A stretch of 64,000 bases of DNA from Candidatus Saccharimonadota bacterium (lineage in GTDB: Bacteria; Patescibacteriota; Saccharimonadia; Saccharimonadales; JAXHMH01). Below, one piece after another: positions 5,359-55,382 of this stretch (its first letter is position 1; each line of letters opens with the position of its first letter). The translations under genes and the position numbers were made by a program. The DNA lies in assembly GCA_034521515.1 (NCBI GenBank), contig JAXHMH010000002.1, positions 344,379 through 408,378 of the forward strand, written 5' to 3'. The notes under the pieces are model-generated. The model had not been told where the DNA came from. It did not search any database and saw only the letters and a list, made by a program, of their open reading frames with translations.

Positions 5359-5373
5359 AAGGAGAAGGAAAGA

Positions 5374-5426
5374 TGGCAACATATAAAGTAATATCAGATA
5401 TCTAAGCAGAGTATAAACTGCTCGGA
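5374..5426 (+). pseudogene. Duplicated 5' fragment of the PrgI-like gene (remnant start left upstream of an inserted TA cassette)
   Basis: These 53 nt match 6245..6297: the first 30 nt are identical, followed by 4 mismatches. One mismatch (GAA to TAA at 5404-5406) stops the reading frame after 10 codons. The fragment is preceded by a strong SD (AAGGAGAAGGAAAG) that the intact copy lacks. Confidence 0.8.
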
Positions 5427-5518: not shown

Positions 5519-5558
5519 TTGACTTTAAGTTTAACTCGAGTTAAACTTGAACCATATG
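5519..5558 (+). promoter_or_regulatory. Promoter/operator of the Phd-VapC operon, leaderless configuration
   Basis: TTGACT (5519-5524), 17-nt spacer, TAAACT (5542-5547), then ATG at 5556, 8 nt after the -10. There is no SD. An 18-bp perfect palindrome GTTTAACTCGAGTTAAAC (5529-5546) overlaps the spacer and the -10. Confidence 0.6.
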
Positions 5559-5822
5559 AAAACTATATCTGCTAAAGAGCTGCGTGACAACCTTGGCGAA
5601 ATAACTAAACGGGTGAGCGCCGGCGAACATATCTACGTAAGCTACAGAAATAAACTGTCTTTCAAGCTAGAACCAGCGACCCCTCCAAAGCCCGCGCGTA
5701 AAAAGCTGGCTGGCCTAGAAGCCTTTTTGGCGGCACCAAAGAAGCCTTCTCAGCACAATCCGGACAAACCCGCAAAAGAAATATATCACGAGCTTCTGGA
5801 TGAAAAATATGGCTCCAAGTAA
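5556..5822 (+). CDS. Type II antitoxin, Phd/YefM family
   Basis: The N-terminus MKTISAKELRDNLGEITKRVSAGEHIYVSYRNKLSFKLEP is typical of Phd/YefM. It is small and overlaps the downstream PIN toxin gene. The ORF-track TTG at 5547 is less likely than ATG 5556. Confidence 0.75.
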   Translation: MKTISAKELRDNLGEITKRVSAGEHIYVSYRNKLSFKLEPATPPKPARKKLAGLEAFLAAPKKPSQHNPDKPAKEIYHELLDEKYGSK

Positions 5823-6198
5823 GCTGTTTTTGGATGCCAATATCCTAATAGAGATTCTAGAATCCCGGCCAAAACATAAAAAAGCGGAAAAACTGTTGCT
5901 TTCAGGTGCGGGGAATTTGCATATCTCTACCCTGACATGCCACATTGCTGCTTATGTGTCCCGAAAAAGAATTGGTCTGGAAGTACTCGAACAATTCTTA
6001 GGCGACTATATTTGGCTAGAGCTGAAACCTGAGGACATAGCTTGGGCATTTGATAACCGCCGTGACAATGACTTTGAAGACGCCCTGCAGATTGCCATGG
6101 CTGTAAGAAGTGGTTGTAGCGTGTTTTATACCCTAGATAAGCAACTCGTCAATGCCTATGCTACCTTGCCCACCCTGGAAGTAAAGTTACTCAAATAG
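5800..6198 (+). CDS. vapC: Type II toxin, PIN-domain VapC family
   Basis: PIN acidic-residue pattern: LFLDANILIE near the N-terminus, DFEDALQIAMA, and TLDKQL near the C-terminus. 132 aa, with a 23-nt overlap with the antitoxin gene. Confidence 0.75.
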   Translation: MKNMAPSKLFLDANILIEILESRPKHKKAEKLLLSGAGNLHISTLTCHIAAYVSRKRIGLEVLEQFLGDYIWLELKPEDIAWAFDNRRDNDFEDALQIAMAVRSGCSVFYTLDKQLVNAYATLPTLEVKLLK

Positions 6199-6212
6199 CA
6201 TAAGTATTTACT

Positions 6213-6240
6213 CAGCACTCTGTACTGTGTACTCTGTACT
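6213..6240. repeat. Heptad tandem tract (cagcact ctgtact gtgtact ctgtact)
   Basis: Four consecutive 7-nt units lie directly between the TA cassette and the ATG (6245) of the PrgI-like gene. Confidence 0.75.
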
Positions 6241-6244
6241 TACA

Positions 6245-7366
6245 ATGGCAACATATAAAGTAATATCAGATATCGAAGCAGAAGATAAACTGCTGGGGCC
6301 GCTGACACTCAGACAGTTTATCTATGCATGTATTGTCGTGGTATCGGGTTATATTGCATTTCGCCTTATATTTGTTAGTTGGCTGCTAGTATTGCCGCTA
6401 CTGCCAATCATGATATTTTTTGGTTTATTGGCGTTTCCATTTACCAAAGATCAACCGGCGGAAGTCTGGTTATTGGCGCGTTTGCGGTTTTTCTTAAAAC
6501 CACACTTACGAATCTGGAGCCAAGACGGCATACAAGAGCTAGTATCTGTTACTGCCCCTAAATTACCAGAAAAGCAGCTTACCAAAGACTTTTCCCAGAC
6601 CGAAGTAAAAAGCCGTCTAAGGGCTTTGGCAGATACAATTGATAGCCGTGGATGGGCAGTCAAGAACGTCAACGTTAATCTAACTGGCCAACCATCCGCC
6701 GCAAACGGTGCATCAGATCGGCTCGTCCAGGCCACGTCAACGCCTCAACCGGTTGCCGATATCGATATTGGAGCATCCGATGACATGCTGGATGAACAGT
6801 ATAACCCCCGCGCACAGTCTCTCGATAAACTCATAAACGCCTCCGGTCAAGCGCACCGGCAGCAAATAGTGCAACAGATGAAGCAGGCTCCCCAACAGAC
6901 GCAGGAACCGGCAGCTAATTACTGGTTTATGAACCAACCATCCGGACAACCGCAACCAGGCTACAACACCGGTAAAGGTACCGTAATCACGCCAGGAAGC
7001 AACGACCAAAAACCCTCAAACCAACAACCAACCACCCAAGAGGAACAAGCCTTGCTCGAGAAAATCCATAAATCAAAACAGCAGCCACAACCTGGCTCCA
7101 GTCATATCAAGACTATCCAACCCATCGATCAGAATAACCCCAATCCTGCGCAAACAACACAACCGCAACCAGAAGCTCCTAATCAAGCCAACACCCCACA
7201 ACAAGCTACTAACGAACATCCCCAAACCAGCCCCCAAAAAACACAGCCCGATCCAGCCCTATTAGAACTTGCCCATAACGACGATCTGAATGTCGAAACC
7301 ATAGCCCGCCAGGCCAACAAGCACAACGACGATGACCCGGAGGAAGTGGTAGTATCGCTACATTAA
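6245..7366 (+). CDS. PrgI-family (VirB3-like) T4SS membrane protein with long Q/P-rich C-terminal tail
   Basis: N-terminus MATYKVISDIEAEDKLLGPLTLRQFIY followed by two hydrophobic helices, the PrgI-family pattern. It lies immediately upstream of VirB4-like genes. The C-terminal ~180 aa are Q/P/N-rich low complexity. ATG 6245 is preferred over track GTG 6227 because the duplicated fragment at 5374 begins at the same ATG. Confidence 0.55.
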   Translation: MATYKVISDIEAEDKLLGPLTLRQFIYACIVVVSGYIAFRLIFVSWLLVLPLLPIMIFFGLLAFPFTKDQPAEVWLLARLRFFLKPHLRIWSQDGIQELVSVTAPKLPEKQLTKDFSQTEVKSRLRALADTIDSRGWAVKNVNVNLTGQPSAANGASDRLVQATSTPQPVADIDIGASDDMLDEQYNPRAQSLDKLINASGQAHRQQIVQQMKQAPQQTQEPAANYWFMNQPSGQPQPGYNTGKGTVITPGSNDQKPSNQQPTTQEEQALLEKIHKSKQQPQPGSSHIKTIQPIDQNNPNPAQTTQPQPEAPNQANTPQQATNEHPQTSPQKTQPDPALLELAHNDDLNVETIARQANKHNDDDPEEVVVSLH

Positions 7367-7368
7367 GC

Positions 7369-7403
7369 TGAAGTACTTAGTACATAGTCCTCAGTACCAA
7401 GTA
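7369..7403. repeat. Heptad tandem tract (gtac-type: gaagtac ttagtac atagtcc tcagtac caagtaa)
   Basis: Five 7-nt units lie between the PrgI-like stop and the 3' end of the four-helix-bundle gene. Confidence 0.65.
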
Positions 7404-7418
7404 AAAGCCACTCAACTT

Positions 7419-7769
7419 CTACGATGGTAATTTACGTATAAACCCTGACAGAAGCTTACTGACTTCAATAACCTCAGAAAGCAGTTTCTTTTGATTTTTG
7501 TCGTTAAGATAACCTAAATCTTTAGCAACAATAAGCATCGACTCAACTTCAAACGCTGATCCTTTGGCAATATACAGATAGTTTCTGAGAGATTTGTTGC
7601 TTTGTTTTGCATAACCTTCGGCAATGTTGTTCATAATCGATACAGCTGCGCGTTGAATCTGATCCCTGAACCCGTAATCCTTGCATGTACTAAAAGAACC
7701 GTAAACATCTGTCGTTAATTCGCGAGCTTTTTGCCACGCAATTATGTCTTTAAATGATTCAATACCCAC
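7419..7769 (-). CDS. Four-helix-bundle protein (23S rRNA intervening-sequence protein family)
   Basis: Shows AWQKARELTTDVY, NNIAEGYAKQS and AKGSAFEVESML, signatures of the PF05635/TIGR02436 family. 116 aa, GTG start. It is antisense to the surrounding T4SS genes. Confidence 0.8.
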   Translation of the reverse strand: MGIESFKDIIAWQKARELTTDVYGSFSTCKDYGFRDQIQRAAVSIMNNIAEGYAKQSNKSLRNYLYIAKGSAFEVESMLIVAKDLGYLNDKNQKKLLSEVIEVSKLLSGFIRKLPS

Positions 7770-7801
7770 TAATTCATTCTACCATCATTTAGTTACTAAC
7801 A

Positions 7802-7836
7802 TGTACTAGGTACTAGGTACTGTGTACTCCGTACTT
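7802..7836. repeat. Heptad tandem tract (tgtacta ggtacta ggtactg tgtactc cgtactt)
   Basis: Five phase-locked 7-nt units lie upstream of the four-helix-bundle gene. The CTAG-containing units give stops on both strands. Confidence 0.8.
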
Positions 7837-7898
7837 GGAGGCTTTGTTCTCTCGCGATTTTCCTCTATACTTAAGCTTATAATCTCCTCTTTCTGAGG

Positions 7899-8783
7899 GT
7901 GGGAAACGTTTATTTCATGAATCCTAATTCACCAAACCAACAACCACAACAAAACCAGCCTGCTGCCAACCAACAACAGGGCTATACTCCAGCCGGACAA
8001 CCTGCCTCCGGCCAAGTTAACGCACCCCAACAGCAACCAGCTCCCGCTAAAACCAATCCAAACAGCACGCAAAACTCCATGGAAATTGCCGAAATCCGCG
8101 ATGGGCTGGTGATCATGAATGACGGCAGCTTCCGATCAGTTGTGATGGCAAAGTCAATAAACTTTGACTTGATGAGCAACGAGGAGCGCGAAGCCGTTGA
8201 GTACAGTTATCAAGGCTTTTTAAACTCTTTGTACTTTCCGGTACAGATTTTTGTAAGGTCACAAAAAGTTGATTTGCGGCCGTATATTGAACGGCTTGAT
8301 AAAATTCGCACCGAGCACGACAATATGCTATTAGCGCTCATGATGGAGGATTACATTAATTTTATCGGTGATTTAAGTATGCAGACTAATATTATGGATA
8401 AGAAGTTTTATATTATCATCCCGTATTTCCCGTCAGTTGATGTTCAAAAAGCACTTACTCAGAGCAAGAATTTATTCACCGGAATTACCAGCATGTTTAA
8501 TAAAAATGAGCAGCATGTGGTTGTCAATGAACAAGATCTCAACAAGGCCAAAGATGAACTACGCAACCGTGTTCAGGCAGTGCTCGGCGGTTTACAACAA
8601 TCTGGCGTTCAAGGTCTGCCACTAGATACTCAGGAACTTATTGAGCTGTATTACGATTCATACAATCCAGATACTGCCACCAGACAGCAGCTGAAAAACT
8701 TCAACGATCTAACTGCTCCTATTGTTACACGCGGTGAAGGTCAGGCAGTAAACCCTAGTTTAGAAAGGGAGCTTGATCAATAA
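7899..8783 (+). CDS. VirB4 N-terminal-domain-like protein (first half of an apparently split VirB4)
   Basis: After a Q/P-rich N-terminus comes EIRDGLVIMNDGSFRSVVMAKSINFDLMSNEEREAVEYSYQGFLNSLYFPVQIFVRSQKVDLRPYIERL. This resembles the N-terminal region of Gram-positive VirB4/TraE-type ATPases. The stop overlaps the next ATG (TAATG at 8781-8785). Confidence 0.5.
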   Translation: MGNVYFMNPNSPNQQPQQNQPAANQQQGYTPAGQPASGQVNAPQQQPAPAKTNPNSTQNSMEIAEIRDGLVIMNDGSFRSVVMAKSINFDLMSNEEREAVEYSYQGFLNSLYFPVQIFVRSQKVDLRPYIERLDKIRTEHDNMLLALMMEDYINFIGDLSMQTNIMDKKFYIIIPYFPSVDVQKALTQSKNLFTGITSMFNKNEQHVVVNEQDLNKAKDELRNRVQAVLGGLQQSGVQGLPLDTQELIELYYDSYNPDTATRQQLKNFNDLTAPIVTRGEGQAVNPSLERELDQ

Positions 8784-10699
8784 TGCTCGGCAAGAAGAAA
8801 TCCGATACTCAAACTGATCCGGTCGCCCTAGCGCAAGCACAACGTGCCCGTGAGCAGCAGGAGGTTACTGCCGCTTTCCAAAAGGGCATAACGGCACTGC
8901 GCGATTTTATTGCTCCTGCTTCACTGGAGTTTAAGGGTACTCACTTCCAAATCGGCACTCGTTTTGCCCGTACGTTTTACGTTTACGGATACCCACGCCA
9001 AGTATTTACCGGCTGGATATCCAGTATGGTCAACCTCGATGAGGTGATGGATTTGAGTATATTTATCTATCCGGTCGAGAGCCAGGTAATACTAGAAAAC
9101 TTGCGCAAAAAAGTTTCCCAGATGGAGGCTGGCATCCAGATCGATGCCGAGAAAGGGCGTGTCCGCGACCCCGGCAGGCAGGCCGCCATCCAAGATGCCG
9201 AAGAAATGCGCGACAAATTACAGGTAGGCGAAGAGCGTTTTTTCCGTTTCGGATTTTATTTCACAGTTTACGGTGGCAGCATGGACGAGCTTGAATTTGT
9301 CACCCATAAGGTCGAGTCAGTTCTCGGTCAACAATTAATTTACTCAAAACCTGCCAGCAGCCAACAAGAACAAGGTCTTAACAGTACATTGCCGCAGTTC
9401 AGCGATCAATTACAAATCAGGCGAAACTTCAGCACCGGCGCGTTAAGTACCAGCTTTCCATTTACCAGCGCAGACCTTACACAGGATGAGGGCATCTTGT
9501 ATGGCATAAATATGCACAATTCCGGGCTAGTTATTTTTGACCGTTTCTCTCTAGAAAACGGCAACTCGGTGGTGTTTGCAAAATCCGGTGCCGGCAAATC
9601 GTTCACTGTTAAATTAGAGGCGCTGCGTAGCATGATGTTTGGTACTGAAGTATTTATTATTGACCCGGAAAACGAGTACCAGCGCATGGCAGAAGCCGTT
9701 GGTGGAGCTTATGTCCGGCTTAGTCTTAACTCTGGCACTCGACTTAACCCATTTGATTTACCACAAGTCATAGACACCGACGAGGCGGATAACGCTTTAC
9801 GCAGCAACCTCATAACACTTCATGGGCTATTAAGATTAATGATGGGTGGAGCGCAGACGCAGATGCTTGAGGGCACCGCAACAACTATGCCCGCCCTCGC
9901 ACCATCAGAAGAAGCCGACCTAGACGCCGCGTTAATTGAAACCTATGCCAAGGCCGGTATTACCAACGACCCACTCACCCATAAATCACAGCCCCCTACC
10001 ATAAACGACCTATATGACACATTGCTACACATGGGTGGCAGCGGCCCGCAACTTGCTCAACGCCTCCGTAAATACACTACCGGTACATTCGCCGGCATAT
10101 TCAGCCAACAATCCAACGTAGATATCAACAACCAGTTTGTAGTGTTCAACATCCGTGACCTAGAGGACGAGCTGCGCCCCGTGGCTATGTATATTGTCCT
10201 AAACTACATCTGGAACAAAACCAAATCCGACCAAAAAAGGCGCATGCTAGTAGTTGATGAGGCCTGGCAGCTCATGAAATATGAAGATTCTGCTAACTTC
10301 TTGTTTAGCCTGGCAAAACGCGCTCGCAAATATAACCTTGGTATCACCACGATAACTCAGGACGTAGAGGACTTTATGGGATCGCGCATGGGTCGGGCTA
10401 TTGTGGCCAACGCCAGTATGCAGATACTACTCAAGCAGTCTCCATCGGCTGTAGATGTACTAAGTGACGTGTTCAAACTTACCAGCGAAGAAAAGAAACG
10501 CCTCAGTCAGTTCCCGGTCGGCCAAGGTCTGTTTTTTGCCGGGCAAAACCATGTCCATATCCAGATTGCCGCTAGCCCAACCGAAACCGGTTTAATCACG
10601 ACCAATCCGCAACAAGTACAAGCCGCCGAACAGGGCGGTGAGCTTAATCAGCCCCAAGGTACAATTGACCTTCAAAATCGCCTAACACCAGGCGTATAA
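8783..10699 (+). CDS. virB4: VirB4-like T4SS ATPase (middle and ATPase domains)
   Basis: Walker A is FAKSGAGKSF and Walker B is RMLVVDEAWQLM. The VirB4-type middle region is FARTFYVYGYPRQVFTGWISSMVNLDEVMDLSIFIYP. Also present is RKYNLGITTITQDVEDF. Confidence 0.85.
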   Translation: MLGKKKSDTQTDPVALAQAQRAREQQEVTAAFQKGITALRDFIAPASLEFKGTHFQIGTRFARTFYVYGYPRQVFTGWISSMVNLDEVMDLSIFIYPVESQVILENLRKKVSQMEAGIQIDAEKGRVRDPGRQAAIQDAEEMRDKLQVGEERFFRFGFYFTVYGGSMDELEFVTHKVESVLGQQLIYSKPASSQQEQGLNSTLPQFSDQLQIRRNFSTGALSTSFPFTSADLTQDEGILYGINMHNSGLVIFDRFSLENGNSVVFAKSGAGKSFTVKLEALRSMMFGTEVFIIDPENEYQRMAEAVGGAYVRLSLNSGTRLNPFDLPQVIDTDEADNALRSNLITLHGLLRLMMGGAQTQMLEGTATTMPALAPSEEADLDAALIETYAKAGITNDPLTHKSQPPTINDLYDTLLHMGGSGPQLAQRLRKYTTGTFAGIFSQQSNVDINNQFVVFNIRDLEDELRPVAMYIVLNYIWNKTKSDQKRRMLVVDEAWQLMKYEDSANFLFSLAKRARKYNLGITTITQDVEDFMGSRMGRAIVANASMQILLKQSPSAVDVLSDVFKLTSEEKKRLSQFPVGQGLFFAGQNHVHIQIAASPTETGLITTNPQQVQAAEQGGELNQPQGTIDLQNRLTPGV

Positions 10700-10703
10700 C
10701 AAG

Positions 10704-10731
10704 TTATGAGCTATGAGTGTTGAACTATGAG
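10704..10731. repeat. Heptad tandem tract (ttatgag ctatgag tgttgaa ctatgag)
   Basis: Four 7-nt units lie directly after the virB4 stop. A TGA in each unit gives stops in all three + frames. An inverted copy of the unit (ctcataa) occurs at 10945-10951 on the far side of the truncated gene. Confidence 0.65.
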
Positions 10732-10951
10732 CAAAGCAGCAGAAGGTTACGCCAAACAAATCGACCGATCTTTTAGGCGCTTTTTGCTCACTGCCAAAGG
10801 GTCAGCTTCAAAAGTGCAGTCTATGCTTATACTGGCCGATGACATACAATATACATCAGAGGAGCAACTAGGATCACGCTTCACGTTAGCGAAAGAGGCG
10901 GCAAAGATTATAGGCGGACTTAAAAATAAACTCCATTCTCAAAACTCATAA
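10727..10951 (+). pseudogene. Truncated four-helix-bundle protein gene (C-terminal ~70 aa only)
   Basis: AEGYAKQIDRSFRRFLLTAKGSASKVQSMLIL aligns with residues ~50-116 of the 7419..7769 product. About 45 N-terminal residues (helices 1-2) are missing, and only 27 nt separate it from virB4. Confidence 0.7.
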
Positions 10952-10963
10952 CACATATCTATC

Positions 10964-13789
10964 ATGGCAGTAGAAGATAAAGAAAAATCCGGATCAAAAG
11001 AGGAAATCACGCCAGATTTTTTGCGTGAGGCTACTGGCATTAACCCCGAGCAAGAACAGACTATGGATCGCGAGGCACACAGCGGCGCCGCCAAAGACAT
11101 TGCCGAACGTGAAGGTATAGCCGGCACACAGAAAACTACCGAGGCCGACAAAGCGGAGAGTGACCGGATTGGCACTCCTGACGGTCAAATTGGCGGCGGT
11201 TACAAAGCTAATGCAAAGAAAAAACGTAAGTTTTGGACCAAGAAAAAAGGTGTCGGGGCTGGAATTGCTGGTTTAGCAGTATTCGGTGGCATGGGTCTAT
11301 TCGGTATAATGAGTGGTCCTTTTGGCGTCATGCATTTTGGCCAACTACTTAATCTCAATTTTTTACCCGGAAATTCTATTTTGACTAGCCGAGCGGGCAA
11401 TTTATATAAGTGGTCACAATGGTCTGACCAACCTGAAATGAGACGGTTGGGTGCAATCGGACGCCAATCCATGCGCGGTATCGATGCAAAATTTGAAAGA
11501 GCAGGTTATAGAAAAGTTGTCGGGTCAGGCGGGCGTCTTCATGCCGTTATTGCCCCAAACAACGAAAGAATACCAGTAGATCCACCCGGTACAGGCAAGT
11601 CTGCAGCTAAACAGAACTGGCGTAGAGTTGTTAGGCGAGTTAATTTGGTAAGCACAAAGCGTATTGGCCCTGTTGGATCGCGGTTTGCAACAAGAGCTTA
11701 CGGCATGAACATGGGAAACATACTAAACCCGAGGCGCACGTTACAGGATTGGCAGGCAAAAAGAACCCGAGTTAGAGAGGCTAGGCAGGCAAATAAAACA
11801 GGTACACAACCAGCAGACGTTAGGACTACTGCAGACGACGCCGACGTCGACCGTGCGCCCGGAGATCCAGACCCAAATGAGGGTACCGGAAGACAAAATA
11901 CTACCTCAAGACGAAACACAGCAAGAGCAATAAAAACGGCCTCTGGCATTGCGCTTGGATGTATTGCGATTGAACTTGCCGATCCTGAAGGTGTAGCCCA
12001 TAAAACAAACGTGATTCTTCCGTTAATACGTGGTGCTGGCCGATACTTAACTATCATGGGTCAATTACAGTCGGGTAACGTTGACCACGAGGAGCTCGGC
12101 ATTGTATATCAAGAGCTTGTTGCTGACAACGAAGACGGGGAGCCAACCTCCGCTTTTGCCTCAGCTCCAATGCAACATCTGGCTGGACGCGCCCCTACTG
12201 GTAGAGATATACCACCTGAAGCCCACCCGGTACGTTCAAAAAACTTTTTCGAAAATATCATGGGTGGTGTTTGGAGCAGTATAGAAGGAGTCCAAGGTCC
12301 TATCAGTGCTGGATGCCAACATATCTCCAGCACTGTCGGGCAAATTATTGGCGGCGGTATAGATATAGCTTTATGCGCGGTTAGCGGTGGAGCAACCTGT
12401 GTCGCAAGAGGCGCTATCCAGACTGCGCTTATCGGAGGAGGTATGCACGTACTAGTCAATATATTAGCCGGTGAACAGACTGCTGCTTGCTTTAGTGAAA
12501 CTGTAGAAGAGCTTGACGAGGAAGACACAGAAGTCGCTGGCAACACCCCTGTTGGCGGTGATATTGTAGGTGCCTGCGCAGGGTATGGCGCCCGCATATT
12601 TGCCAATGAGAACATGCTTAACTTTGGTGGCACACAATTAAGCGACGAGGAGTTTGCTGCTGTTCAGCGTTATAGCAATGAATTGGAAACTGAGCGCTTC
12701 CAAAACCAAAGCCTATTCGCAAGATTATTTAGCCCTTATGAACACAAATCCTTGTTCTCTAATGTCGCTCGTAATACATTGGTTTTTGCTTCTGGTAATA
12801 GTGGCCATAAATTCGCACACTCGCTACTGACAGCCCCCTTTGGCATAACGCAAAACTTACTCCAACCATTTAATTCGGCAGTTTACGCGCAGGACAATCG
12901 CACGTTTGATTGGGGCGGTTATCCAGCATACGGTTTTAGTATTGATGAACTGGATGATGAACGGTTTGATAACCCGTTTGAAAACGCTTCTATCGTCGCC
13001 GATAGACTTGATGATAGCGACGTAAAAGATAAAATTGAGCGCTGTTTTGCTCTTGAGCTGCAAGACGATTACTCCTTAAAAAGGATAGATGATGAGGTTA
13101 GGTCAGTACATTCACTTGATGGCTGCGACGACCAGGACGAAGTTTGGAAGCGTATAAGGTTTTATATACTAGACACCCAAATTGCGGAGACTATGAATTG
13201 TTATGAAGGCGATCATACCAGTTGCCGAACAATCGGTTTCGATGTCGCAAACGCTGAATCCGAACAATCCACCTCGCGACCAGCTCCCGACGAAGCTATT
13301 GTGGGAGATACTTCTGACCAACCCTGCGCATCAGGCACAGATGACCTCGGAACTGCAACCGGTTACAATAACGGGGACGCTTATACTATCCGGCTGTGCT
13401 CCATACCCGGTTTTACCTCTGAATGGCCGGGTGAAGAATTCATAAGAATAAACTCAACGGTATCAGGGAATTGGCTAAACTTATTCCAAGCTGCCCGAAC
13501 AGACGGTATAGATCTCCAAGCCGTCAATTCCTTCAGAAGCATGGAACGCCAGCAAGTGCTTTACGATCGATATCTGGCAGGCCGCGGGAACTTGGCCGCT
13601 CAACCAGGACACTCTAACCATCAGCTTGGTTTTGCAGTCGATATCGTTATGGATGACCGTGGTTTAAATCTAGAACAGTGCCGAGCTAATGCTGCACAAT
13701 ATCCAATATTTAGCTGGCTGAGAGATAACTCTTCCGACTTTGGCATCGAAGCAAATGTTCCAGATGAATGCTGGCATTGGTCGTCATGA
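10964..13789 (+). CDS. Large membrane-anchored protein with C-terminal M15B (VanY-type) D,D-peptidase domain
   Basis: Charged N-terminus, hydrophobic segment GAGIAGLAVFGGMGLFGIMSGPFGV and a large uncharacterised middle. C-terminal motifs are SFRSMERQQVLY, HSNHQLGFAVDI and DECWHWS, which are zinc D-Ala-D-Ala carboxypeptidase signatures. Confidence 0.7.
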   Translation: MAVEDKEKSGSKEEITPDFLREATGINPEQEQTMDREAHSGAAKDIAEREGIAGTQKTTEADKAESDRIGTPDGQIGGGYKANAKKKRKFWTKKKGVGAGIAGLAVFGGMGLFGIMSGPFGVMHFGQLLNLNFLPGNSILTSRAGNLYKWSQWSDQPEMRRLGAIGRQSMRGIDAKFERAGYRKVVGSGGRLHAVIAPNNERIPVDPPGTGKSAAKQNWRRVVRRVNLVSTKRIGPVGSRFATRAYGMNMGNILNPRRTLQDWQAKRTRVREARQANKTGTQPADVRTTADDADVDRAPGDPDPNEGTGRQNTTSRRNTARAIKTASGIALGCIAIELADPEGVAHKTNVILPLIRGAGRYLTIMGQLQSGNVDHEELGIVYQELVADNEDGEPTSAFASAPMQHLAGRAPTGRDIPPEAHPVRSKNFFENIMGGVWSSIEGVQGPISAGCQHISSTVGQIIGGGIDIALCAVSGGATCVARGAIQTALIGGGMHVLVNILAGEQTAACFSETVEELDEEDTEVAGNTPVGGDIVGACAGYGARIFANENMLNFGGTQLSDEEFAAVQRYSNELETERFQNQSLFARLFSPYEHKSLFSNVARNTLVFASGNSGHKFAHSLLTAPFGITQNLLQPFNSAVYAQDNRTFDWGGYPAYGFSIDELDDERFDNPFENASIVADRLDDSDVKDKIERCFALELQDDYSLKRIDDEVRSVHSLDGCDDQDEVWKRIRFYILDTQIAETMNCYEGDHTSCRTIGFDVANAESEQSTSRPAPDEAIVGDTSDQPCASGTDDLGTATGYNNGDAYTIRLCSIPGFTSEWPGEEFIRINSTVSGNWLNLFQAARTDGIDLQAVNSFRSMERQQVLYDRYLAGRGNLAAQPGHSNHQLGFAVDIVMDDRGLNLEQCRANAAQYPIFSWLRDNSSDFGIEANVPDECWHWSS

Positions 13790-15006
13790 TAAAAAAACAT
13801 TTCATTATACTGGTTGCAGCCGTTGTACTTGTCTCAAGTTTCATGTCACAAAGTGTGTTGGCGATTTCTGATGAGCAAAGAAGAATACTAGAATCCAATA
13901 TACTTTTCTACAACGTTGATGCTACCGACAGTATTGCGGACTCATGCACACTCCTTGTTGCCGGAAAAGGTGACATATTTAACGAAACTCAGTTGGAACA
14001 AATTGAGCGCAACCGTCTCGTATACGAAGAGGCTGGACAAGAGGCGGATGTCCCTTGGGAGATGTTGGCGGTTATACACCTGAAGGAGTCTGGGCTAGGT
14101 CGAGAAAACCCTAGTAATGGTCAAGGTGTTTACCAATTCGTCAATAAAAACGGCGGGCCATATCCACCAGGCCCGGTTAATGAGGCTGAGTTTGTTCGTC
14201 AAACAAAACTGGCAGCTCAATTTGTCCGCTCTAAGTTACCATCAAACCTTGAACATAACCGAAATTTAACATACTCAGGGGCTTCATCTGACACTATAAA
14301 AGATACGTTCTTCAGTTATAACGGCAGGAGCAGTGGTTATGCTGACCAGGCTGAAGCTTTGGGGTTTGATCGGGAGCGACAGCCATTTGAGGGATCACCA
14401 TATGTCATGAATAAGGCAGACCCCCAGCGAGATCCAGAAATTAACACTACCACCTGGGGACAAGTCAAGGAAGACTTTGGACCAATTGAATATCCAGCAA
14501 ATAATTTTTACGGCGCCTACGTAAGCTATGCGGCACTAGCTGGCACCGGTACAGACAACTGCGACCAAAATCTCGGTATTAGGGTTGTTGAGATAGCCCA
14601 AGAAGAGCTTGCTTTGGGTGCAAACGAAGCAGATAATTCCTACTTTAAATATACAGAAGGTATAGAGGCTGCTTGGTGTGCATATTTTGTAAGCTGGGTA
14701 TTCGATAAAGCTGGAGCTCCTTTCGAAGGCGGTCCACTTCCTCAAGTTTCAACTATGCAAGCCTATGCAAGAGACCGAGGTATGTATTACGAGTCAGACG
14801 ACAGCACTTTCACACCGCAACCAGGTGATATTGTTGTCTACAAGGAAGGGGTGCTGCCTTTTGAATCGCATGTTAATATAGTCATCTCTTACAATGCGGG
14901 TACTGAAATAATTACGACAATTGGCGGTAATGAGTCCGATACAATACTAGAACTAACAAACGAACGGTCACTACCTTCAATTAGTGGCTTTATAAGGATT
15001 CAGTAA
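13786..15006 (+). CDS. Secreted peptidoglycan hydrolase with C-terminal CHAP domain
   Basis: Signal peptide MIKKHFIILVAAVVLVSSFMSQSVLA, with ATG 13786 overlapping the upstream stop as ATGA. CHAP motifs are AAWCAYFVSWVFDKAG (Cys), GDIVVY, SHVNIVISY (His) and GGNESD. The N-terminal half (PWEMLAVIHLKESGLG) may be a second, lysozyme-like module, but this is uncertain. Confidence 0.7.
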   Translation: MIKKHFIILVAAVVLVSSFMSQSVLAISDEQRRILESNILFYNVDATDSIADSCTLLVAGKGDIFNETQLEQIERNRLVYEEAGQEADVPWEMLAVIHLKESGLGRENPSNGQGVYQFVNKNGGPYPPGPVNEAEFVRQTKLAAQFVRSKLPSNLEHNRNLTYSGASSDTIKDTFFSYNGRSSGYADQAEALGFDRERQPFEGSPYVMNKADPQRDPEINTTTWGQVKEDFGPIEYPANNFYGAYVSYAALAGTGTDNCDQNLGIRVVEIAQEELALGANEADNSYFKYTEGIEAAWCAYFVSWVFDKAGAPFEGGPLPQVSTMQAYARDRGMYYESDDSTFTPQPGDIVVYKEGVLPFESHVNIVISYNAGTEIITTIGGNESDTILELTNERSLPSISGFIRIQ

Positions 15007-15008
15007 TT

Positions 15009-15722
15009 ATGTATAACGTAAATAAAAAACATATTATCCTGGCAATCTTAGTGCTGTCCGCGCTACTGTTAATATTTGGAATAAAAATATACTTGGATAA
15101 CCAACGTTTCCAAGTCTTCTCGACTACTCCATCACTTACACAAACCGTCGCAACCAGCACTTCTGTAATAAAGCTTGACTTTAATAAACCGCTTTCAGAT
15201 GATTCTTCCTATAACAGAACGCTTATTAAGGATCTTGATGAGCTAGCATATATACATGATGTTGAGCGAGCTGGTGATTCACTGCTGGTTAGGCTGGGCA
15301 CACTCAACTCCGGACAAGAATACACTGTTACATTTAATGATATTATTTCAGCTGATGGTGATGTTATATCGGACTTAAGTTATACATTTTTTGTTGACTA
15401 TATTCCGTACGATCGACTATCTGAAGCACAGAAAGCTTTGGAGCTACAAGAAACTGATCGAGGGAGTGAAGATGACCCAGTGCTTAACTATGTACCACAC
15501 TCAACATTACGGTATGAAATTAATCCTATACAGAGAACCAACAACGACGGTGTATATTCGCTTGGCTTGGACATAAAAATTATCCTTTCTAACGCCGACA
15601 GGTCTAACCAAGATGCCGCTATCGCTACATATAAAGAAATGGCTATGGATTACTTGCGTTCTGTTGACATCAACCCAGACGATTATGATATTTACTACCG
15701 TATTATTGAACCGACTCTTTAG
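15009..15722 (+). CDS. Membrane-anchored hypothetical protein, possible Ig-like ectodomain
   Basis: N-terminal TM (HIILAILVLSALLLIFGI), then TPSLTQTVATSTSVIKLDFNKPLSDDS ... GQEYTVTFNDIISADG, which resembles SbsA/Big-type Ig-like domains. It is the last gene of the + strand cluster, and its 3' end overlaps the recF 3' end convergently. Confidence 0.4.
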   Translation: MYNVNKKHIILAILVLSALLLIFGIKIYLDNQRFQVFSTTPSLTQTVATSTSVIKLDFNKPLSDDSSYNRTLIKDLDELAYIHDVERAGDSLLVRLGTLNSGQEYTVTFNDIISADGDVISDLSYTFFVDYIPYDRLSEAQKALELQETDRGSEDDPVLNYVPHSTLRYEINPIQRTNNDGVYSLGLDIKIILSNADRSNQDAAIATYKEMAMDYLRSVDINPDDYDIYYRIIEPTL

Positions 15723-16785
15723 TTTTGTTTGTCGGAATAACGTGGCACTGGTCTAGAAAATGCTGCACAACGATATCAGCATCCGTGGTAGTTATAAACG
15801 TTTGATAACCAGCCAAAAACTCGGTTAACGCCATGCGCCGGGCGCCATCCAGCTCACTAAACACATCGTCAAGTAGTAGTATCGGTTTCTCATCGCGCAC
15901 TTCCTCGACCAACCGCACTTCAACAATCTTCAACCCAAGTAGTAGCGTCCGTATCTCGCCGCGCGACCCAACCTCATCCGCCGGATGATTGTCCAACGTA
16001 ATGTGCATATCGTCACGGTGAGGGCCGTACCCGGTAAAGCCACGCTGTATATCCAAGTCCTGCGTGGCTTCCAGTTTGCTCAACATCTGTGACTCATACT
16101 GATGCCCGCTACAAGCTGTTTTATACTTAACACCCACCGTAATCTTACTGTCTGACAGTTGTCGGTAGATAGTCTGGAGTTCTTGATTAATTCGGTTCAC
16201 CAGTGCCAGTCGTTCTTTAGCGATTGCACCACCTAGTTCTGCCAGCCTGATATTCCAGGCAAAAATCTGAGTGTTAACATGGCTATCGCCAGACTTTAAT
16301 AACGCATTACGTTGCGCCAACGTCCGCTTATATTGGCGGCGAAGCTGCCCGAAACCGACCACCATCTGCTCCAACATATCGTCCATAAACTCGCGCCGGC
16401 GTTCAGGTGATCCGGTAAGCAGCCGTAAATCATCCGGCTCAAACAATACAACCGGTACGGTTTTATTCAGCGACAAACGCTTGTATGTCTTATCCGCCAA
16501 AACAAAACTTTTCTGAACCCGATCGGCACCCTCTATTGTTTCTAATTTAACCGTGCGCGTCCCGTGGCTAGTAAATGCGTCGAGGCGCGACCACGGAGCT
16601 TTGTGGCGAACCAACTCACTATCCCGAGCCCTGTATGAACTACCCAGACACGCTACCAATAGCGCCTCCAGCAAATTTGTTTTACCGCTAGCGTTTGGGC
16701 CAACCACAATGTTAACCCCAGGCTCAAACTCAAAACTATCGTTATGATATGACCTAAAGTCCTGCAAGTTAAGCGCTTCAATCAC
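15703..16785 (-). CDS. recF: DNA replication and repair protein RecF
   Basis: Walker A is GPNASGKTNLLEAL and the Walker B-like motif is ILLLDDVFSELD. GTG start. It sits in the dnaA-dnaN-recF synteny. Confidence 0.9.
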   Translation of the reverse strand: MIEALNLQDFRSYHNDSFEFEPGVNIVVGPNASGKTNLLEALLVACLGSSYRARDSELVRHKAPWSRLDAFTSHGTRTVKLETIEGADRVQKSFVLADKTYKRLSLNKTVPVVLFEPDDLRLLTGSPERRREFMDDMLEQMVVGFGQLRRQYKRTLAQRNALLKSGDSHVNTQIFAWNIRLAELGGAIAKERLALVNRINQELQTIYRQLSDSKITVGVKYKTACSGHQYESQMLSKLEATQDLDIQRGFTGYGPHRDDMHITLDNHPADEVGSRGEIRTLLLGLKIVEVRLVEEVRDEKPILLLDDVFSELDGARRMALTEFLAGYQTFITTTDADIVVQHFLDQCHVIPTNKTKESVQ

Positions 16786-17158
16786 GCTTAGTCTCCCGTC
16801 GCTTGTCGCTTGTCGCTAGCTTACCAATAAACCCTGTCAGTAATTTTGAGATCTCTATTGAGATACCTGTGAATTGTTTGTACTCATTTTGATGAATTTT
16901 ATTTGCTGCTAGCGCAATATGAAGCATGGAGCGGACTTCCGCACATGAGCCACGTGCAATTACTAAAAACTGCCTAAGCTCCTTGTCCGAACTCCTGTCA
17001 AACCCTTCGGCAATATTGTTAGTGATAGATAAGCAAGCTCTCATAATCTGATCCTTAAACGATAGATCTCTCTCATACTTCAACTCCTTACTAAGCCCTA
17101 TGTATAGCTCTTCGCCTTTTTGCCAGGCAATCACATCCTCAAAATTCCTTATACGCAT
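16778..17158 (-). CDS. Four-helix-bundle protein (23S rRNA intervening-sequence protein family) inserted between dnaN and recF
   Basis: Shows VIAWQKGEELY, NNIAEGFDRSS and ARGSCAEVRSML. The C-terminal 10 aa (ATSDKRRETKRD) are encoded by a heptad tract, and the stop overlaps the recF GTG (GTGATTGA). Confidence 0.8.
   Translation of the reverse strand: MRIRNFEDVIAWQKGEELYIGLSKELKYERDLSFKDQIMRACLSITNNIAEGFDRSSDKELRQFLVIARGSCAEVRSMLHIALAANKIHQNEYKQFTGISIEISKLLTGFIGKLATSDKRRETKRD
16797..16817. repeat. Heptad tandem tract (cgtcgct tgtcgct tgtcgct) inside the 3' end of the four-helix-bundle ORF
   Basis: Three 7-nt units, stop-free on the minus strand, are translated as a C-terminal extension. Confidence 0.7.
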
Positions 17159-17210
17159 AACTATATTGTACTGGAGACTAAAATGACTGGTAACTAGTGA
17201 CTTAAAAGCT

Positions 17211-18302
17211 TTAGCTTTTCAGTGGCATAATCACATGCAAATAATCATCAGTGGCAATATCGTAGAGCAGTGATGGCTCGAGCTTATCGTTAAACCCAAA
17301 CCGCACCGTTTCACCAGATAACACATTAAGTGCATCAAGCAAGTAGCGCGAATTTAGCGTAATAACACCATCGCCCTTAACTTCAGCCGATGCGTTAGAA
17401 GTGTTTTCACCCAACTGAGAAGCGATGGAACGAATACTGAGTTGTTGATCCTTTTCGCTTAGATTAATTGTTACACTACCGGCGCTTTCCCTGGCAAATA
17501 AGCTTGATACTTTGGTTACATTGGTCAGTTCGCTGCGTTTTAAGGTAGCACTGGTGGCAAAATCTCGCGGTATAAGTTTGCGATAATCAGGATATTTACC
17601 GTCAATCAACCTGGTCACTAACTCAACATCACCCACCTTAAACAACACCTGCTGGTCATCATGCGACACCTCGACATCATCTTCGCCGTCAGACACAATC
17701 CGTAGCAAATCTTGCATAGCGTTAGCCGGTATAAGTAGATTTATGTTTTCTTTTGTTTTGTGTAGCTTCTTTTCAGCTAAACGGTAACTATCGGTTGCAA
17801 CCATATATAAATTACCTTCGTGTGTGTGTAGATACACACCGGTTAAAACTGGGCGGGCTTCGTCGTTAGAAGCCGCTACGATGACTTGTTGTAAGGCGGT
17901 TTTTAGGGTTTTTCCGGGTATAGTCCATTTGTTAGCTTGCTTAATCGCTGGCATTACCGGAAAATCCTCGGCTGATATACCGTTGATAGTTGAATTGTAT
18001 TTATCGGTTGTGATGTGTAAGCGGTTTTCTTCAAGTTCTAAATCGATAACGCCGCTCGGTAAACTACCTACAAAATCCTGCATAAGCCTAGCTGGTACAG
18101 TAATCGACCCTTCTTCGCTAACCTTTGACCCGATGTAGTGGGTGATTGCAATATCCAGGTTTGTTGCCGCAATACTCAAACGGTTATCAACTGTTTTTAT
18201 AAGCACATTGGCAAGTACAGGGAGTGTCCCACGCGTATTAGCAACTCGAGCCACGGTTTGTAGTGCTTTTGTTAAGTTTTCCTGGGTGACTTGTAGCTTC
18301 AT
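17211..18302 (-). CDS. dnaN: DNA polymerase III beta sliding clamp
   Basis: The N-terminus MKLQVTQENLTKALQTVARVANTRGTLPVLANVLI is typical. 363 aa, downstream of dnaA. Confidence 0.92.
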   Translation of the reverse strand: MKLQVTQENLTKALQTVARVANTRGTLPVLANVLIKTVDNRLSIAATNLDIAITHYIGSKVSEEGSITVPARLMQDFVGSLPSGVIDLELEENRLHITTDKYNSTINGISAEDFPVMPAIKQANKWTIPGKTLKTALQQVIVAASNDEARPVLTGVYLHTHEGNLYMVATDSYRLAEKKLHKTKENINLLIPANAMQDLLRIVSDGEDDVEVSHDDQQVLFKVGDVELVTRLIDGKYPDYRKLIPRDFATSATLKRSELTNVTKVSSLFARESAGSVTINLSEKDQQLSIRSIASQLGENTSNASAEVKGDGVITLNSRYLLDALNVLSGETVRFGFNDKLEPSLLYDIATDDYLHVIMPLKS

Positions 18303-18580: not shown

Positions 18581-18664
18581 CAACCTACTAACTACCAATT
18601 CCTTCACCCCATCTACCATATACCAACTACTAACTACCAACTGCCATCTACCAACTACCAGCCT
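18581..18664. repeat. Heptad tandem tract, 12 units (ccaacta/ccatcta/ctaacta type) abutting the dnaA stop
   Basis: The tract is 84 nt in unbroken 7-nt register. On the minus (dnaA sense) strand the units read tagttgg/tagatgg, giving TAG in all frames. It is the same unit family as 54585-54605. Confidence 0.8.
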
Positions 18665-20962: not shown

Positions 20963-21919
20963 ATGTTTGAAAATCTTATTGTACTGCCCATATTTAACTT
21001 GCTCGTTTTTATCTATGCAATTTTGCCAGGGCATAACTTTGGGCTCGCACTGATTATATTCACGGTTGTTGTGCGCATGCTGATGTGGCCGCTCATTAGA
21101 AAACAGCTTCATCACGCTAAAGCAATGCGTAAACTTCAACCAGAGATTAAGAAAATTAAACAGGCTACCAAGGGCGATCGACAAAAAGAGTCCATGATGC
21201 TCATGCAGCTGTACAAGGAACGTGAAGTTAGTCCGTTTAGTAGTCTCGGTGTTCTGGCAGTCCAGCTGGTTATATTCATAGGGCTCTACCAGGGTTTGAT
21301 CCGAGTTATTGAGGATCCGCAGGCGCTAATTGTGCACTCCTATAGCTGGATTGCAAACCTAGGGTGGATGCAACAACTGGCTGCCGATATCGGGCAATTT
21401 GACGCCACGCTTTTTGGACTGGTTGATTTGTCGCGGAGTGCTCTAGGATCCGGCGGTCTGTATATCCCAGCTCTACTACTAGTAATCGGTAGTGCCGCCA
21501 CACAGTATTATCAGAGCAAGCAACTCATGCCCGATGATAAAAATTCACGCGGTTTGCGGCAGATTATGCGTGAAGCCAGTGCTACTGGTAAACAAGCCGA
21601 CCAATCCGAAGTACAGGCTGCTACCGGGCGTATGATGCGCTACTTTATACCCGTTATGATATTCGTTGTTACTATTGGGCTGGCTTCAGCACTGGCGCTT
21701 TATTGGTTCACTAGCGGTATAGTTGCCTATCTCCAGCAATCTCGTATCTTAGGCCAGGATAAGGATGAGCTGGAAGAGCTAGCCCATAAAGACGACAAGA
21801 AGAACGATAAACAAAACGCCAAGAAACAAGTCATAGAAGGCGAAGTTATCCAAAAACCAAAAACCAAAAACCAAAAGACCAAAAAGACCTCCAAATCTAA
21901 AAAAAGGAGGAAACGATGA
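20963..21919 (+). CDS. yidC: Membrane protein insertase YidC (short, Gram-positive type) with lysine-rich tail
   Basis: Shows GLALIIFTVVVRMLMWPLIRKQLHHAKAMRKLQPEIKKIKQ and multiple TM helices. The basic C-terminal tail is KPKTKNQKTKKTSKSKKRRKR. It follows rnpA. Confidence 0.88.
   Translation: MFENLIVLPIFNLLVFIYAILPGHNFGLALIIFTVVVRMLMWPLIRKQLHHAKAMRKLQPEIKKIKQATKGDRQKESMMLMQLYKEREVSPFSSLGVLAVQLVIFIGLYQGLIRVIEDPQALIVHSYSWIANLGWMQQLAADIGQFDATLFGLVDLSRSALGSGGLYIPALLLVIGSAATQYYQSKQLMPDDKNSRGLRQIMREASATGKQADQSEVQAATGRMMRYFIPVMIFVVTIGLASALALYWFTSGIVAYLQQSRILGQDKDELEELAHKDDKKNDKQNAKKQVIEGEVIQKPKTKNQKTKKTSKSKKRRKR
21850..21884. repeat. Heptad tandem tract inside the yidC tail-coding region ((ccaaaaa)x3, ccaaaag, accaaaa)
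   Basis: Three perfect and two imperfect 7-nt units encode QKPKTKNQKTK. Confidence 0.75.
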
Positions 21920-31205: not shown

Positions 31206-32705
31206 ATGGTACGAAAAAGTACAGTTCGGGAGCACCGCAGCCAACAACGCAGTAATGACCAAAAAGGGCTACGGCATGTCGAGCTTGGCTCGGCAACAGG
31301 TAGCCAGGCGCAAAGTGTCTGGAAACACATACCACTCTGGGGGAGCTACGCGCTGCTGGTGTACATGCCGTTTCATATCTTTTTGAGCCAGTGGTTGAGC
31401 ACATTTACCGGCGGTCTGGAAGCCTGGAAAATTGCCAAAGATGTAATAACGCTTGCCCTGGTAGTGGTTAGTCTGGGCTTAGTTTTATGGACCGGCGCGT
31501 ACAAACAACGAGTATTTATATGGGCTGCCGGGTTGTCGGTGGCGTACGTTGCACTGCATATTATTACCTACGCCATAAACCAGGACACCACACCGGAAGT
31601 TGCGGCGTTGGCCACGGTTTATAACAATCGCCTCCTGTGGTATTTGATAATCGGCCTGAGTGCTTGGTTGCTGACGCCAAAAAGTTTCACTATCAATAAA
31701 ATCACCAAGCTGGTGCTGATCGTCAGCACCATAACCGCCGGGTTAGGAGTGTTGCAGTATTTTGCGCCCGCTAACATCATGACGTATTTTGGCTACAGCT
31801 TGGATCGCGGCGTTTGGCCGGCATTCTTTATTGATAGCAAACCGGACTTGCCGCGGATTATGAGCACCGTGCGCGACCCCAACTCCTACGGGGCGTACTT
31901 AATCCTACCTCTTACTCTCCTCTGGACGCTGCTTTTGCAGAGTTTAAAAGTAAAAAGTAAAAAGTACAAAGCTCAAGTCTCAAAGCTCAAGTCTCCAGTC
32001 TCATCTATTAACTATCATCTATCAACTATGAGCAGCGCCACGCTGCTCCTCAGTGGCCTCTTCATGCTGCACGGTCTCGCGTTGTTTTTGACTTTTTCAC
32101 GGTCGGCTTGGATCGGGGCATTTGTCAGCTTGGTCATCGTCAGTTTAGTGGCAGAACGCCGGTTTATGAAACAGTGGTTTAAGCGGTTGTGGCCGTTTGT
32201 GACAGCGGCGATATTCGTGCTGGCGTTTGGAATACTCATGCTAAGGGATACCTACGTGGTGCAAAACATTATCTTTCATGCCGATGACAGCACAACTGCC
32301 GAAATGGACTCCAACGCACTGCATATTCATGCGCCACTAGAGGGGTTACGGCAGGCCGGCCAAAAACCACAAGGCTACGGTCCGGGCACTGCGGGTATTG
32401 TCTCGATCCAGAATGAGTCCGGCAGCTTTTTGACAGAAAACTACTACATACAGATATTGCACGAGGTCGGCATTGCCGGACTGGCGGTCTTTGGGGCGGC
32501 GCTGTTGTTTGTAGTGCGGCAACTACGGGTTGAGAGCAAACTTGGCGCAGCTTTGTTTGCATCGTTTTGGGGCTACTTCTTGATGAGCATGATTATGCAT
32601 TTATGGACCAATGAAGCAGTTGCTGCGCAGTGGTGGCTGGCGGCTGGCTTGCTGATCGGGGCGCAGATGGCAGCCAATGAGCACAAGCCAAAGCGACAGA
32701 ACTGA
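31206..32705 (+). CDS. O-antigen ligase/polymerase-like (Wzy_C-type) polytopic membrane protein
   Basis: At least 10 hydrophobic helices. LALFLTFSRSAWIGAFVSLVIV is typical of the O-antigen ligase family loop region. GAGGAG SD 7 nt before the ATG. Confidence 0.6.
   Translation: MVRKSTVREHRSQQRSNDQKGLRHVELGSATGSQAQSVWKHIPLWGSYALLVYMPFHIFLSQWLSTFTGGLEAWKIAKDVITLALVVVSLGLVLWTGAYKQRVFIWAAGLSVAYVALHIITYAINQDTTPEVAALATVYNNRLLWYLIIGLSAWLLTPKSFTINKITKLVLIVSTITAGLGVLQYFAPANIMTYFGYSLDRGVWPAFFIDSKPDLPRIMSTVRDPNSYGAYLILPLTLLWTLLLQSLKVKSKKYKAQVSKLKSPVSSINYHLSTMSSATLLLSGLFMLHGLALFLTFSRSAWIGAFVSLVIVSLVAERRFMKQWFKRLWPFVTAAIFVLAFGILMLRDTYVVQNIIFHADDSTTAEMDSNALHIHAPLEGLRQAGQKPQGYGPGTAGIVSIQNESGSFLTENYYIQILHEVGIAGLAVFGAALLFVVRQLRVESKLGAALFASFWGYFLMSMIMHLWTNEAVAAQWWLAAGLLIGAQMAANEHKPKRQN
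31950..32033. repeat. Heptad tract (12 units = 84 nt = 28 codons) embedded in-frame in the ligase-like CDS, inverted relative to the intergenic tracts
   Basis: The units read gtaaaaa gtaaaaa gtacaaa gctcaag tctcaaa gctcaag tctccag tctcatc tattaac tatcatc tatcaac tatgagc. The reverse complement contains gatgata, gttaata, ctggaga and cttgaga, units also found at 55383-55501 and 56054-56186. It encodes VKSKKYKAQVSKLKSPVSSINYHLSTMS. Confidence 0.8.
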
Positions 32706-54406: not shown

Positions 54407-54410
54407 TGAT

Positions 54411-55364: not shown

Positions 55365-55382
55365 AATATAGTATTTCGTATC

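Follow-up and report, generated by a model that had tools for sequence, protein, structure and literature searches.

The closest described relatives of the elements considered here are the intervening sequences (IVS) of 23S ribosomal RNA (rRNA), which in Leptospira, Coxiella burnetii and Brucella (helix 45) carry an open reading frame (ORF) in the loop of a stem with complementary termini. Cutting of the IVS stem by RNase III has been demonstrated for Leptospira and Salmonella as well as for Coxiella, and the S23p family, to which the encoded proteins belong, counts thousands of members. In the Coxiella IVS, three GACAGAT heptads stand upstream of the S23p ORF and the terminal stem is cleaved by RNase III; the number of heptads differs between strains (PMC4990558). 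The family, also called "23S rRNA IVS protein", was still described as functionally uncharacterised in 2024 (PMC11270868). Three genes of this family, here termed c1, c2 and c3, occur in a 64,000-nucleotide (nt) stretch of a Candidatus Saccharimonadota genome (contig JAXHMH010000002.1, positions 344,379 to 408,378; the window), where they lie between protein-coding genes. It is proposed, with moderate confidence, that these copies are IVS-type stem-loop cassettes that are sporadically gained, lost and degraded in operon spacers; judging from this sporadic distribution, the cassettes are probably selfish.

In each cassette, an ORF for a four-helix-bundle (4HB) protein of about 115 amino acids (aa) lies between a 5' arm built of tandem units of 7-9 nt and a 3' arm of reverse-complement units. 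The window copies share this arm/ORF/arm anatomy and thus have the architecture of the classical ORF-carrying IVS, although outside rRNA: rRNA IVS occupy helix 25 or 45 of the 23S gene, and the window holds no rRNA and no other Rfam family. Besides the protein family and the ORF placed in the loop, the likenesses include tandem heptamers in the 5' arm (GACAGAT in Coxiella, GACAGAG/GACGGAT in Azospirillum), a sporadic distribution and a decaying ORF. The Azospirillum copy (L166; L numbers denote compared loci) is located within a large-subunit rRNA gene, and its GACAGAG/GACGGAT heptads make a near-perfect stem (z = -9.5). The window copies differ in their location and in having stems that are longer but periodically mismatched, and RNase III processing has been demonstrated for the rRNA versions only. 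The features concerned are as follows, in window coordinates.

7419-7769, minus strand: c1, full-length 4HB ORF of 116 aa, antisense to the surrounding type IV secretion system (T4SS) genes
7773-7847, minus strand: c1 5' arm, tandem AGTACnn x5 (core 7802-7836) with the adjoining sequence as far as the start codon
7361-7438, minus strand: c1 3' arm, tandem nnGTACT x5 (core 7369-7403), extending into the last ORF codons
10727-10951, plus strand: c2, decayed copy of 74 aa, C-terminal half only
10703-10731, plus strand: c2 5' arm, TTATGAG / CTATGAG heptads
10937-10952, plus strand: c2 3' arm, CTCAAAA / CTCATAA units, reverse complement of the c2 5' arm
16778-17158, minus strand: c3, full-length 4HB ORF of 126 aa between dnaN and recF
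17159-17210, minus strand: c3 5' arm, units of AGTCnnn type throughout the dnaN-c3 spacer, less marked than those of c1
16790-16819, minus strand: c3 3' arm, AGCGACA x3 plus GGAGACT inside the ORF tail (GCGAC / GAGACT units), predicted by folding to pair with the 5' arm
17211-18302, minus strand: dnaN, host gene upstream of the c3 site
15703-16785, minus strand: recF, host gene downstream of the c3 site

A first-pass annotation of the window had placed three 23S-IVS-family genes at these positions, and ORF listing together with profile hidden Markov model scores bore this out: all three ORFs exist and exceed the curated cut-offs of PF05635 (23S_rRNA_IVP; 33.8 bits) and TIGR02436 ("four helix bundle protein"; 24 bits). 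Scores against PF05635 were 120.1 bits for c1 (E = 6e-35), 42.6 bits for c2 (7.6e-11) and 91.9 bits for c3 (3.5e-26), and those against TIGR02436 were 112, 42 and 86 bits, respectively. Also as annotated, c1 is antisense within the T4SS cluster, c2 amounts to the C-terminal half (it matches PF05635 profile positions 44-105 only) and the stop codon of c3 overlaps the GTG start of recF (16778-16785). The ATG of c2 comes from the last upstream heptad. Pairwise identities among the three proteins are 46%, 42% and about 30%, and tblastn over the 64 kb window found no 4HB copies beyond these; the host is a Saccharibacterium of soil type, with a DnaN 71-80% identical to that of 80 Saccharimonadales genomes. 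By sequence, the solved structure closest to c1 is PDB 2GSC (X. campestris XCC0516, five chains; E = 1e-11). An AlphaFold2 model built from the three-sequence alignment of the window copies has four helices, with a mean pLDDT of only 49.5.

Heptad tracts border all three copies, as had been noted. Two are strong (7802-7836, with GTACTnn units, and 16797-16817), and those at 7369-7403, 10704-10731, 10945-10952 and 17166-17202 are weaker yet visible. The tract of c3 is indeed translated: its 3' arm (GTCGCTT x3) codes the last 12 codons, giving the 12-aa C-terminal tail ATSDKRRETKRD. Inversion had been recognised for c2 but missed for c1 and c3, and it is the key feature. In every copy, the tract on one side of the gene is, on the coding strand, the reverse complement of that on the other, which places the gene in the loop of a long stem with periodic mismatches; the array core differs among c1, c2 and c3. 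When the whole c1 element was folded, the flanks 7773-7847 and 7361-7438 formed a terminal stem of about 70 nt in the minimum free energy (MFE) and centroid structures alike, and the isolated c1 arms gave a duplex of -43 kcal/mol (z = -7.3 against shuffles). The folds of c3 and c2 also close their ends, more weakly, in both structures; in c2, GUUAUGAG is paired with CUCAUAAC. A gapless inverted-repeat search of the whole window was uninformative, as heptad stems are missed owing to register shifts between units. The window contains 11 strong period-7 tracts, against none or one for each other period from 4 to 12, and two of the 11 fall within ~600 nt of 4HB flank space (expected 0.1; Poisson P = 0.005).

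The history of the c3 site was followed in 10 kb on each side of dnaN from 80 related Saccharibacteria species, of which 75 loci hold both dnaN and recF. The spacer between the two genes is empty (9-44 nt) in 53 of the 75 loci and occupied by a 4HB gene in six (L005, L006, L009, L022, L050 and L080). Two further loci carry decayed remnants, namely 91 nt of inverted GAGTAnT arrays in L028, where the stem is kept and the ORF gone, and a 10-codon stub reading MRIKSFDDVEPR between TGTC-type heptads in L069. No 4HB gene was found at the c1 or c2 position in any of the 80 loci, the orthologous spacers there being short. At other T4SS operon junctions, ORF-less heptad hairpins were seen in L003, L025 and L048, and distant PF05635 genes with GAAA/TTTC arrays in L030 and, as a second copy, in L005. 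The copies are therefore not positionally conserved, and the decay recorded in the first-pass annotation for c2 extends to the remnants of L028 and L069.

Carriers of a 4HB gene at dnaN-recF are scattered over a neighbour-joining tree of DnaA plus DnaN, each with closer relatives whose site is empty. The L009 and L080 copies are 71% identical in 4HB and 57% in RecF, and L005 and L009 are 45% identical in 4HB and 84% in DnaA; c1, from another site of the window genome, is closer to the L009 and L080 copies (57-58%) than c3 is (44-45%). On these figures, 4HB identity is incongruent with host-gene identity. All the filled sites have the inverted-array design, with differing cores: AAAGTnn/nnACTTT (L005, L022, L050), ATAGT/ACTAT (L006) and a palindromic AGCT on both sides (L009, L080). 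The junction has been entered independently by at least two cassette types, and probably by four. Certain array cores bear a likeness to the ancestral spacer (AGCTA, ACTATAG), which was judged too weak for a claim. An ordinary vertically inherited gene was rejected on the sporadic occupancy, the scattered carriers and the incongruence between 4HB and host. Sequence comparison shows a cassette that some orthologous sites hold and others lack, that entered one site more than once, and whose decay leaves ORF-less hairpins or truncated ORFs. The earlier description of a mobile or selfish repeat-bounded cassette is accordingly supported by its sporadic occurrence, lack of positional conservation and flanking repeats, the word selfish deriving from the sporadic distribution.

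The dnaN-recF junction also receives other material. The insert of L045 is 129 nt long and includes a perfect hairpin of 29 bp. A related insert of about 133 nt is common to L033, L071 and L077, and L018, L051, L058 and L072 contain inserts of 235-700 nt. The junction looks like a general insertion hot spot.

Beyond these relatives, a metagenome scan with the 4HB alignment gave 80 further loci, in which 77 full-length copies were scored; together with ten plasmid-borne copies from cultured bacteria they form a set of 87 elements spanning metagenomes of the candidate phyla radiation, cyanobacteria, Bacteroidota, Gemmatimonadota and an Azospirillum 23S rRNA. The number of six-mers common to the 100 nt upstream and the reverse-complemented 100 nt downstream had a median of 13 for the 77 copies and of 2 for 1200 control genes from the same contigs (Mann-Whitney P = 4e-32). 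Eight or more shared six-mers were present in 70% of the 4HB copies and 5% of the controls. Most sampled members (71 of the 87) have mirror-image arrays, two or more upstream occurrences of one 5-mer being answered by two or more of its reverse complement downstream, whether they lie in rRNA, dnaN-recF, cas operons or parA-parB. Among the plasmid-borne copies from other phyla, the inverted-array design was recognised by eye in eight of ten, and in a ninth an insertion sequence (IS) replaces the upstream arm. The association with flanking repeats that had been proposed thus holds beyond this genome.

The units are spaced by 7 nt in 132 cases, 8 nt in 69 and 9 nt in 124, so that "heptad" names just one of the modes. 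Arrays typically have three to five units, in which 5-nt cores are conserved and 2-4-nt spacers vary within an array. Further core pairs are AGTAC/GTACT, ACGTC/GACGT and GACAGAG/CTCTGTC, and on plasmids GGGAAAA/TTTTCCC (Nostoc, Geminocystis), GGAGATA/TATCTCC (Picosynechococcus), CAGGTGA/TCACCTG (Anabaena 90), AAGGTTn/nAACCTT (Riemerella) and GGCAGAA/TTCTGCC (Stanieria, Gemmatirosa). Across lineages the core sequence differs and the mirror symmetry is kept. The literature searched, of which coverage was incomplete, does not describe this general inverted-array architecture or a link to cyanobacterial repeats; only the note on the Coxiella IVS was found.

Several plasmid copies are placed inside conserved operons (cas10-cmr3, cas6-cas4, parA-parB). 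The cas examples, in cas10/cmr2-cmr3 or cas6-cas4, come from L162 (Picosynechococcus PCC 7003), L163 (Anabaena sp. 90) and L164 (Pseudanabaena galeata), and on a Geminocystis NIES-3709 plasmid (L168) the partition genes parA, whose annotation reads AAA ATPase, and parB enclose a cassette that has GGGAAAA/TTTTCCC arms. A large-scale survey listed '23S rRNA IVP' among CRISPR-linked domains (PMC10910872), and such insertions may be the source of that entry. Caution is warranted here, as 4HB genes in cas operons are probably insertions and not CRISPR accessories. Two other loci show further states of the gene: in L105 (1006-4237) three tandem 4HB copies, two of them 90% identical, have direct GACTTTn arrays in between, and in L086 (2971-3345) the gene is a pseudogene broken by an internal stop. 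A scan of viral contigs, made with a narrow peptide pattern, found one relative among 2.9 million contigs, and phage carriage of this 4HB subfamily is considered unlikely.

Several signals bear on whether the arms act in the transcript. For 36 elements with an AAAGT core, cognate arms pair at -43.3 kcal/mol and non-cognate arms at -36.5 kcal/mol (P = 5e-5), which means that arm matching extends past the core. Of the sense and antisense duplexes, the former was the more stable in 49 cases and the latter in 27 (P = 0.016), and G-U pairs numbered 448 in sense versus 380 in antisense; this asymmetry may be taken as a modest indication that the transcript is under selection. In 74 of 85 elements, unrelated cores included, purines are more frequent in the 5' arm than in its 3' counterpart. 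Neighbours are co-oriented with the cassette in 50 of 51 cases upstream and 37 of 43 downstream, which fits co-transcription in the host operon. Since the elements share ancestry and are not independent of one another, the P values given here are optimistic. The protein itself has dN/dS values of 0.04-0.28 (including 0.14 at an unsaturated dS of 0.40), a purifying selection which implies that it does something, and the 4HB proteins are basic, with a median isoelectric point (pI) of 9.0.

In the explanation favoured here, the cassette would be transcribed within the host operon and its arms would pair into a long imperfect stem to be cut by RNase III, as in the IVS of Coxiella, Leptospira and Salmonella. 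Cutting would free the ORF-bearing loop and limit damage to the host transcript, and such limited damage would allow the cassette to persist in essential operons and rRNA alike. On the model of its relative 2GSC, the 4HB protein would form a pentameric toroid. Avd, the accessory protein of diversity-generating retroelements (DGRs), is small, basic, pentameric and nucleic-acid binding, and has a homologous four-helix-bundle fold in the same family. By analogy with it, the 4HB protein most likely binds nucleic acid, and it probably binds its own arms.

PF05635 is indeed cited for Avd (PMC10053308), but Avd genes have not been described with flanking inverted heptad arrays. No reverse-transcriptase-like neighbour and no repeat pair of the template/variable type was seen beside c1-c3, whose adjacent ORFs are T4SS genes, dnaN and recF, where neighbours were identified by synteny and tblastn and no dedicated reverse transcriptase profile scan was run. 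Identity with a DGR Avd was rejected for want of a reverse transcriptase among the neighbours so identified.

A number of observations weigh against IVS-type cassettes. The folding z-scores of the whole elements are weak (c1 -1.65, c3 -2.15, c2 -0.9), and the stems are broken every 5-6 bp by unmatched spacers, which would make them poorer RNase III substrates than the near-perfect stems of Coxiella or Azospirillum. c1 runs antisense to its neighbours, and a promoter scan around it found none convincing on the coding strand. In some copies (Pseudanabaena L164, the tandem copies of L105) the arrays are direct instead of inverted, the excess stability of the sense strand is only modest in size, and the statistics carry the non-independence mentioned above. 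No convincing target-site duplication was found when filled and empty dnaN-recF and T4SS junctions were compared, and no recombinase was identified with the cassettes, mobility therefore being inferred from distribution only. Nor are the arrays exclusive to the 4HB cassette, since those flanking toxin-antitoxin modules are direct and some arrays stand alone.

The same inverted arrays might instead act in DNA, as the terminal inverted repeats of a foldback element whose cruciforms or lagging-strand hairpins would serve insertion, excision or recombination, with a 4HB oligomer binding the arrays. The ORF-less heptad hairpins would then be non-autonomous derivatives, analogous to REPIN/RAYT pairs or to those of miniature inverted-repeat transposable elements (MITEs) with transposons. 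Foldback (FB) transposons of Drosophila and MITEs likewise have long terminal inverted repeats of short tandem repeats and many non-coding copies; FB elements are eukaryotic, their repeats are much longer, and a transposase partner is known in some copies. Such an account, which we regard as possible though rather unlikely, would accommodate the presence/absence polymorphism with repeated entry at one site, the ORF-less inverted pairs at other operon junctions and in 4HB-carrying contigs, and the match of cognate arms past the core, which is expected if one arm was copied from the other. It also draws on the density of strong period-7 tracts, which is 172/Mb in the window as against about 5/Mb in the 80 related loci, mostly without 4HB (about 30-fold); in 4HB-bearing metagenome contigs it is 124/Mb counted more than 200 nt from the gene, and many of these tracts are ORF-less inverted pairs. 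A connection between protein and arrays at the level of the genome is hinted at, although lineage and contig selection confound this comparison. The 4HB protein, however, lacks any nuclease or recombinase motif, nearby genes encode none either, the cores differ between copies of one genome and so offer no common recognition sequence, and the orientation bias and the purine/pyrimidine polarity of the arms are unexpected for a symmetric DNA element. Nor was a target-site duplication found at the filled and empty junctions. Of the features of an IS or MITE, inverted termini are present, the sole ORF is that of the 4HB protein and no clear target-site duplication emerged. An integron gene cassette does not fit either, as tandem arrays stand on both sides of the ORF and no copy has an integrase next to it.

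The units could also be double-stranded DNA sites for 4HB or a host factor, arranged symmetrically about the gene for autoregulation or insulation, with arm pairing incidental; the omega repressor of pSM19035, for example, binds heptad iterons. Conserved 5-nt cores with variable 2-4-nt spacers are the pattern of iterated binding sites, three to five units per array are compatible with a pentameric binder such as 2GSC, and the proteins are basic. Even so, operator arrays are an improbable explanation. c1 (AGTAC) and the L009 copy (AGCT) are 58% identical yet have unrelated cores, while distant proteins have AAAGT in common; cognate arms outpair non-cognate arms of identical core; the same arrays make a processed RNA stem in true rRNA IVS; and ORF-less hairpins persist without the protein gene. 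Least probable of all is that the arrays are a passive by-product of genome-wide slippage, like the short tandemly repeated repetitive (STRR) heptamers of cyanobacteria, piling up in dispensable spacers such as the insertion of any small accessory gene would open, with a functionless 4HB association. In its favour, three toxin-antitoxin modules of the window have arrays at their flanks too, further arrays come after dnaA or sit in-frame in a Wzy-like gene and the YidC tail, and array copy number differs between Coxiella strains. Slippage leaves unexplained, however, the reverse-complement downstream array in 71 of 87 elements across phyla, the cognate-arm match beyond the core, the arm polarity, and the absence of symmetry from control genes of the same contigs.

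A broader relation is offered here as a speculation, with low confidence. The 4HB protein (S23p/Avd-like) might be the partner of a multi-phylum class of hairpins of tandem 7-9-nt arrays, in a relation like that of REPIN and RAYT. The class would span ORF-less rRNA IVS, the STRR heptamers of cyanobacteria and the solo tracts of the window genome, and the pentameric toroid would read array periodicity and structure instead of a fixed sequence, making, maintaining or moving the arrays without a known transposase. STRR are likewise tandem intergenic heptanucleotide arrays, and arrays of the same kind bracket 4HB genes on plasmids of Nostoc, Anabaena, Picosynechococcus, Geminocystis and Stanieria; they have, however, been described as dispersed repeats without a linked protein, and the host of the window is a Saccharibacterium, not a cyanobacterium. 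REPIN/RAYT systems similarly place a single small gene between inverted short repeats that also occur gene-less in many spacers of the same genome. RAYT, however, belongs to the HUH Y1 transposases, and its repetitive extragenic palindrome (REP) is fixed within each genome, whereas 4HB lacks a catalytic motif and each cassette carries a core of its own; REPs are single palindromes and the cassette arms are tandem arrays. Membership of REPIN/RAYT itself was rejected, the protein being PF05635 and not of the Y1 transposase family and the cores differing among c1, c2 and c3. On the IVS-type account, three puzzles (the origin of rRNA IVS, bacterial heptamer repeats and the S23p family) would reduce to one element of stem, ORF and pentameric protein.

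Most heptad tracts of the window stand away from 4HB genes, on the flanks of toxin-antitoxin modules, behind dnaA or in-frame within coding sequences. The interval 54407-56193, between sat-cysC (52676-54406) and cysQ (56181-56951), has received two toxin-antitoxin modules of RelE/ParE type (54811-55364 and 55554-56031), separated by direct composite blocks of (GAGACTA)n followed by (GATAGnn/AATAGnn)n at 54407-54723, 55398-55501 and 56060-56193. This layout resembles a cassette array. A Phd/YefM-PIN module (5547-5822 and 5800-6198) interrupts a T4SS-cluster gene after codon 10, the present start of the gene being at 6245. Its initial 30 nt exist in exact duplicate (5373-5402 = 6245-6274), the upstream duplicate retaining its Shine-Dalgarno sequence and meeting a stop codon, and a GTACT heptad tract at 6210-6240 ends the insert.

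Directly after the dnaA stop codon, solo arrays occur in the window (18609-18660) and in L032 (6017-6045), L044 (9567-9618) and L050 (1519-1554); their units all differ (TAGTTGG, AGAATAA, GGAAAAT and AGGAATC), and no inverted partner was seen. Tandem heptad arrays can also be translated as gene tails or in-frame inserts, which calls for caution. At 31946-32029, 84 nt comprising twelve heptads (AAAAGTA, CAAGTCT, CATCTAT) lie in-frame in an ORF like Wzy_C/O-antigen ligase (31206-32705), just before the Wzy_C domain, adding 28 codons. At 21845-21885, CCAAAAA x5 codes the Lys/Pro-rich C-terminal tail of YidC (60KD_IMP; gene 20963-21919).

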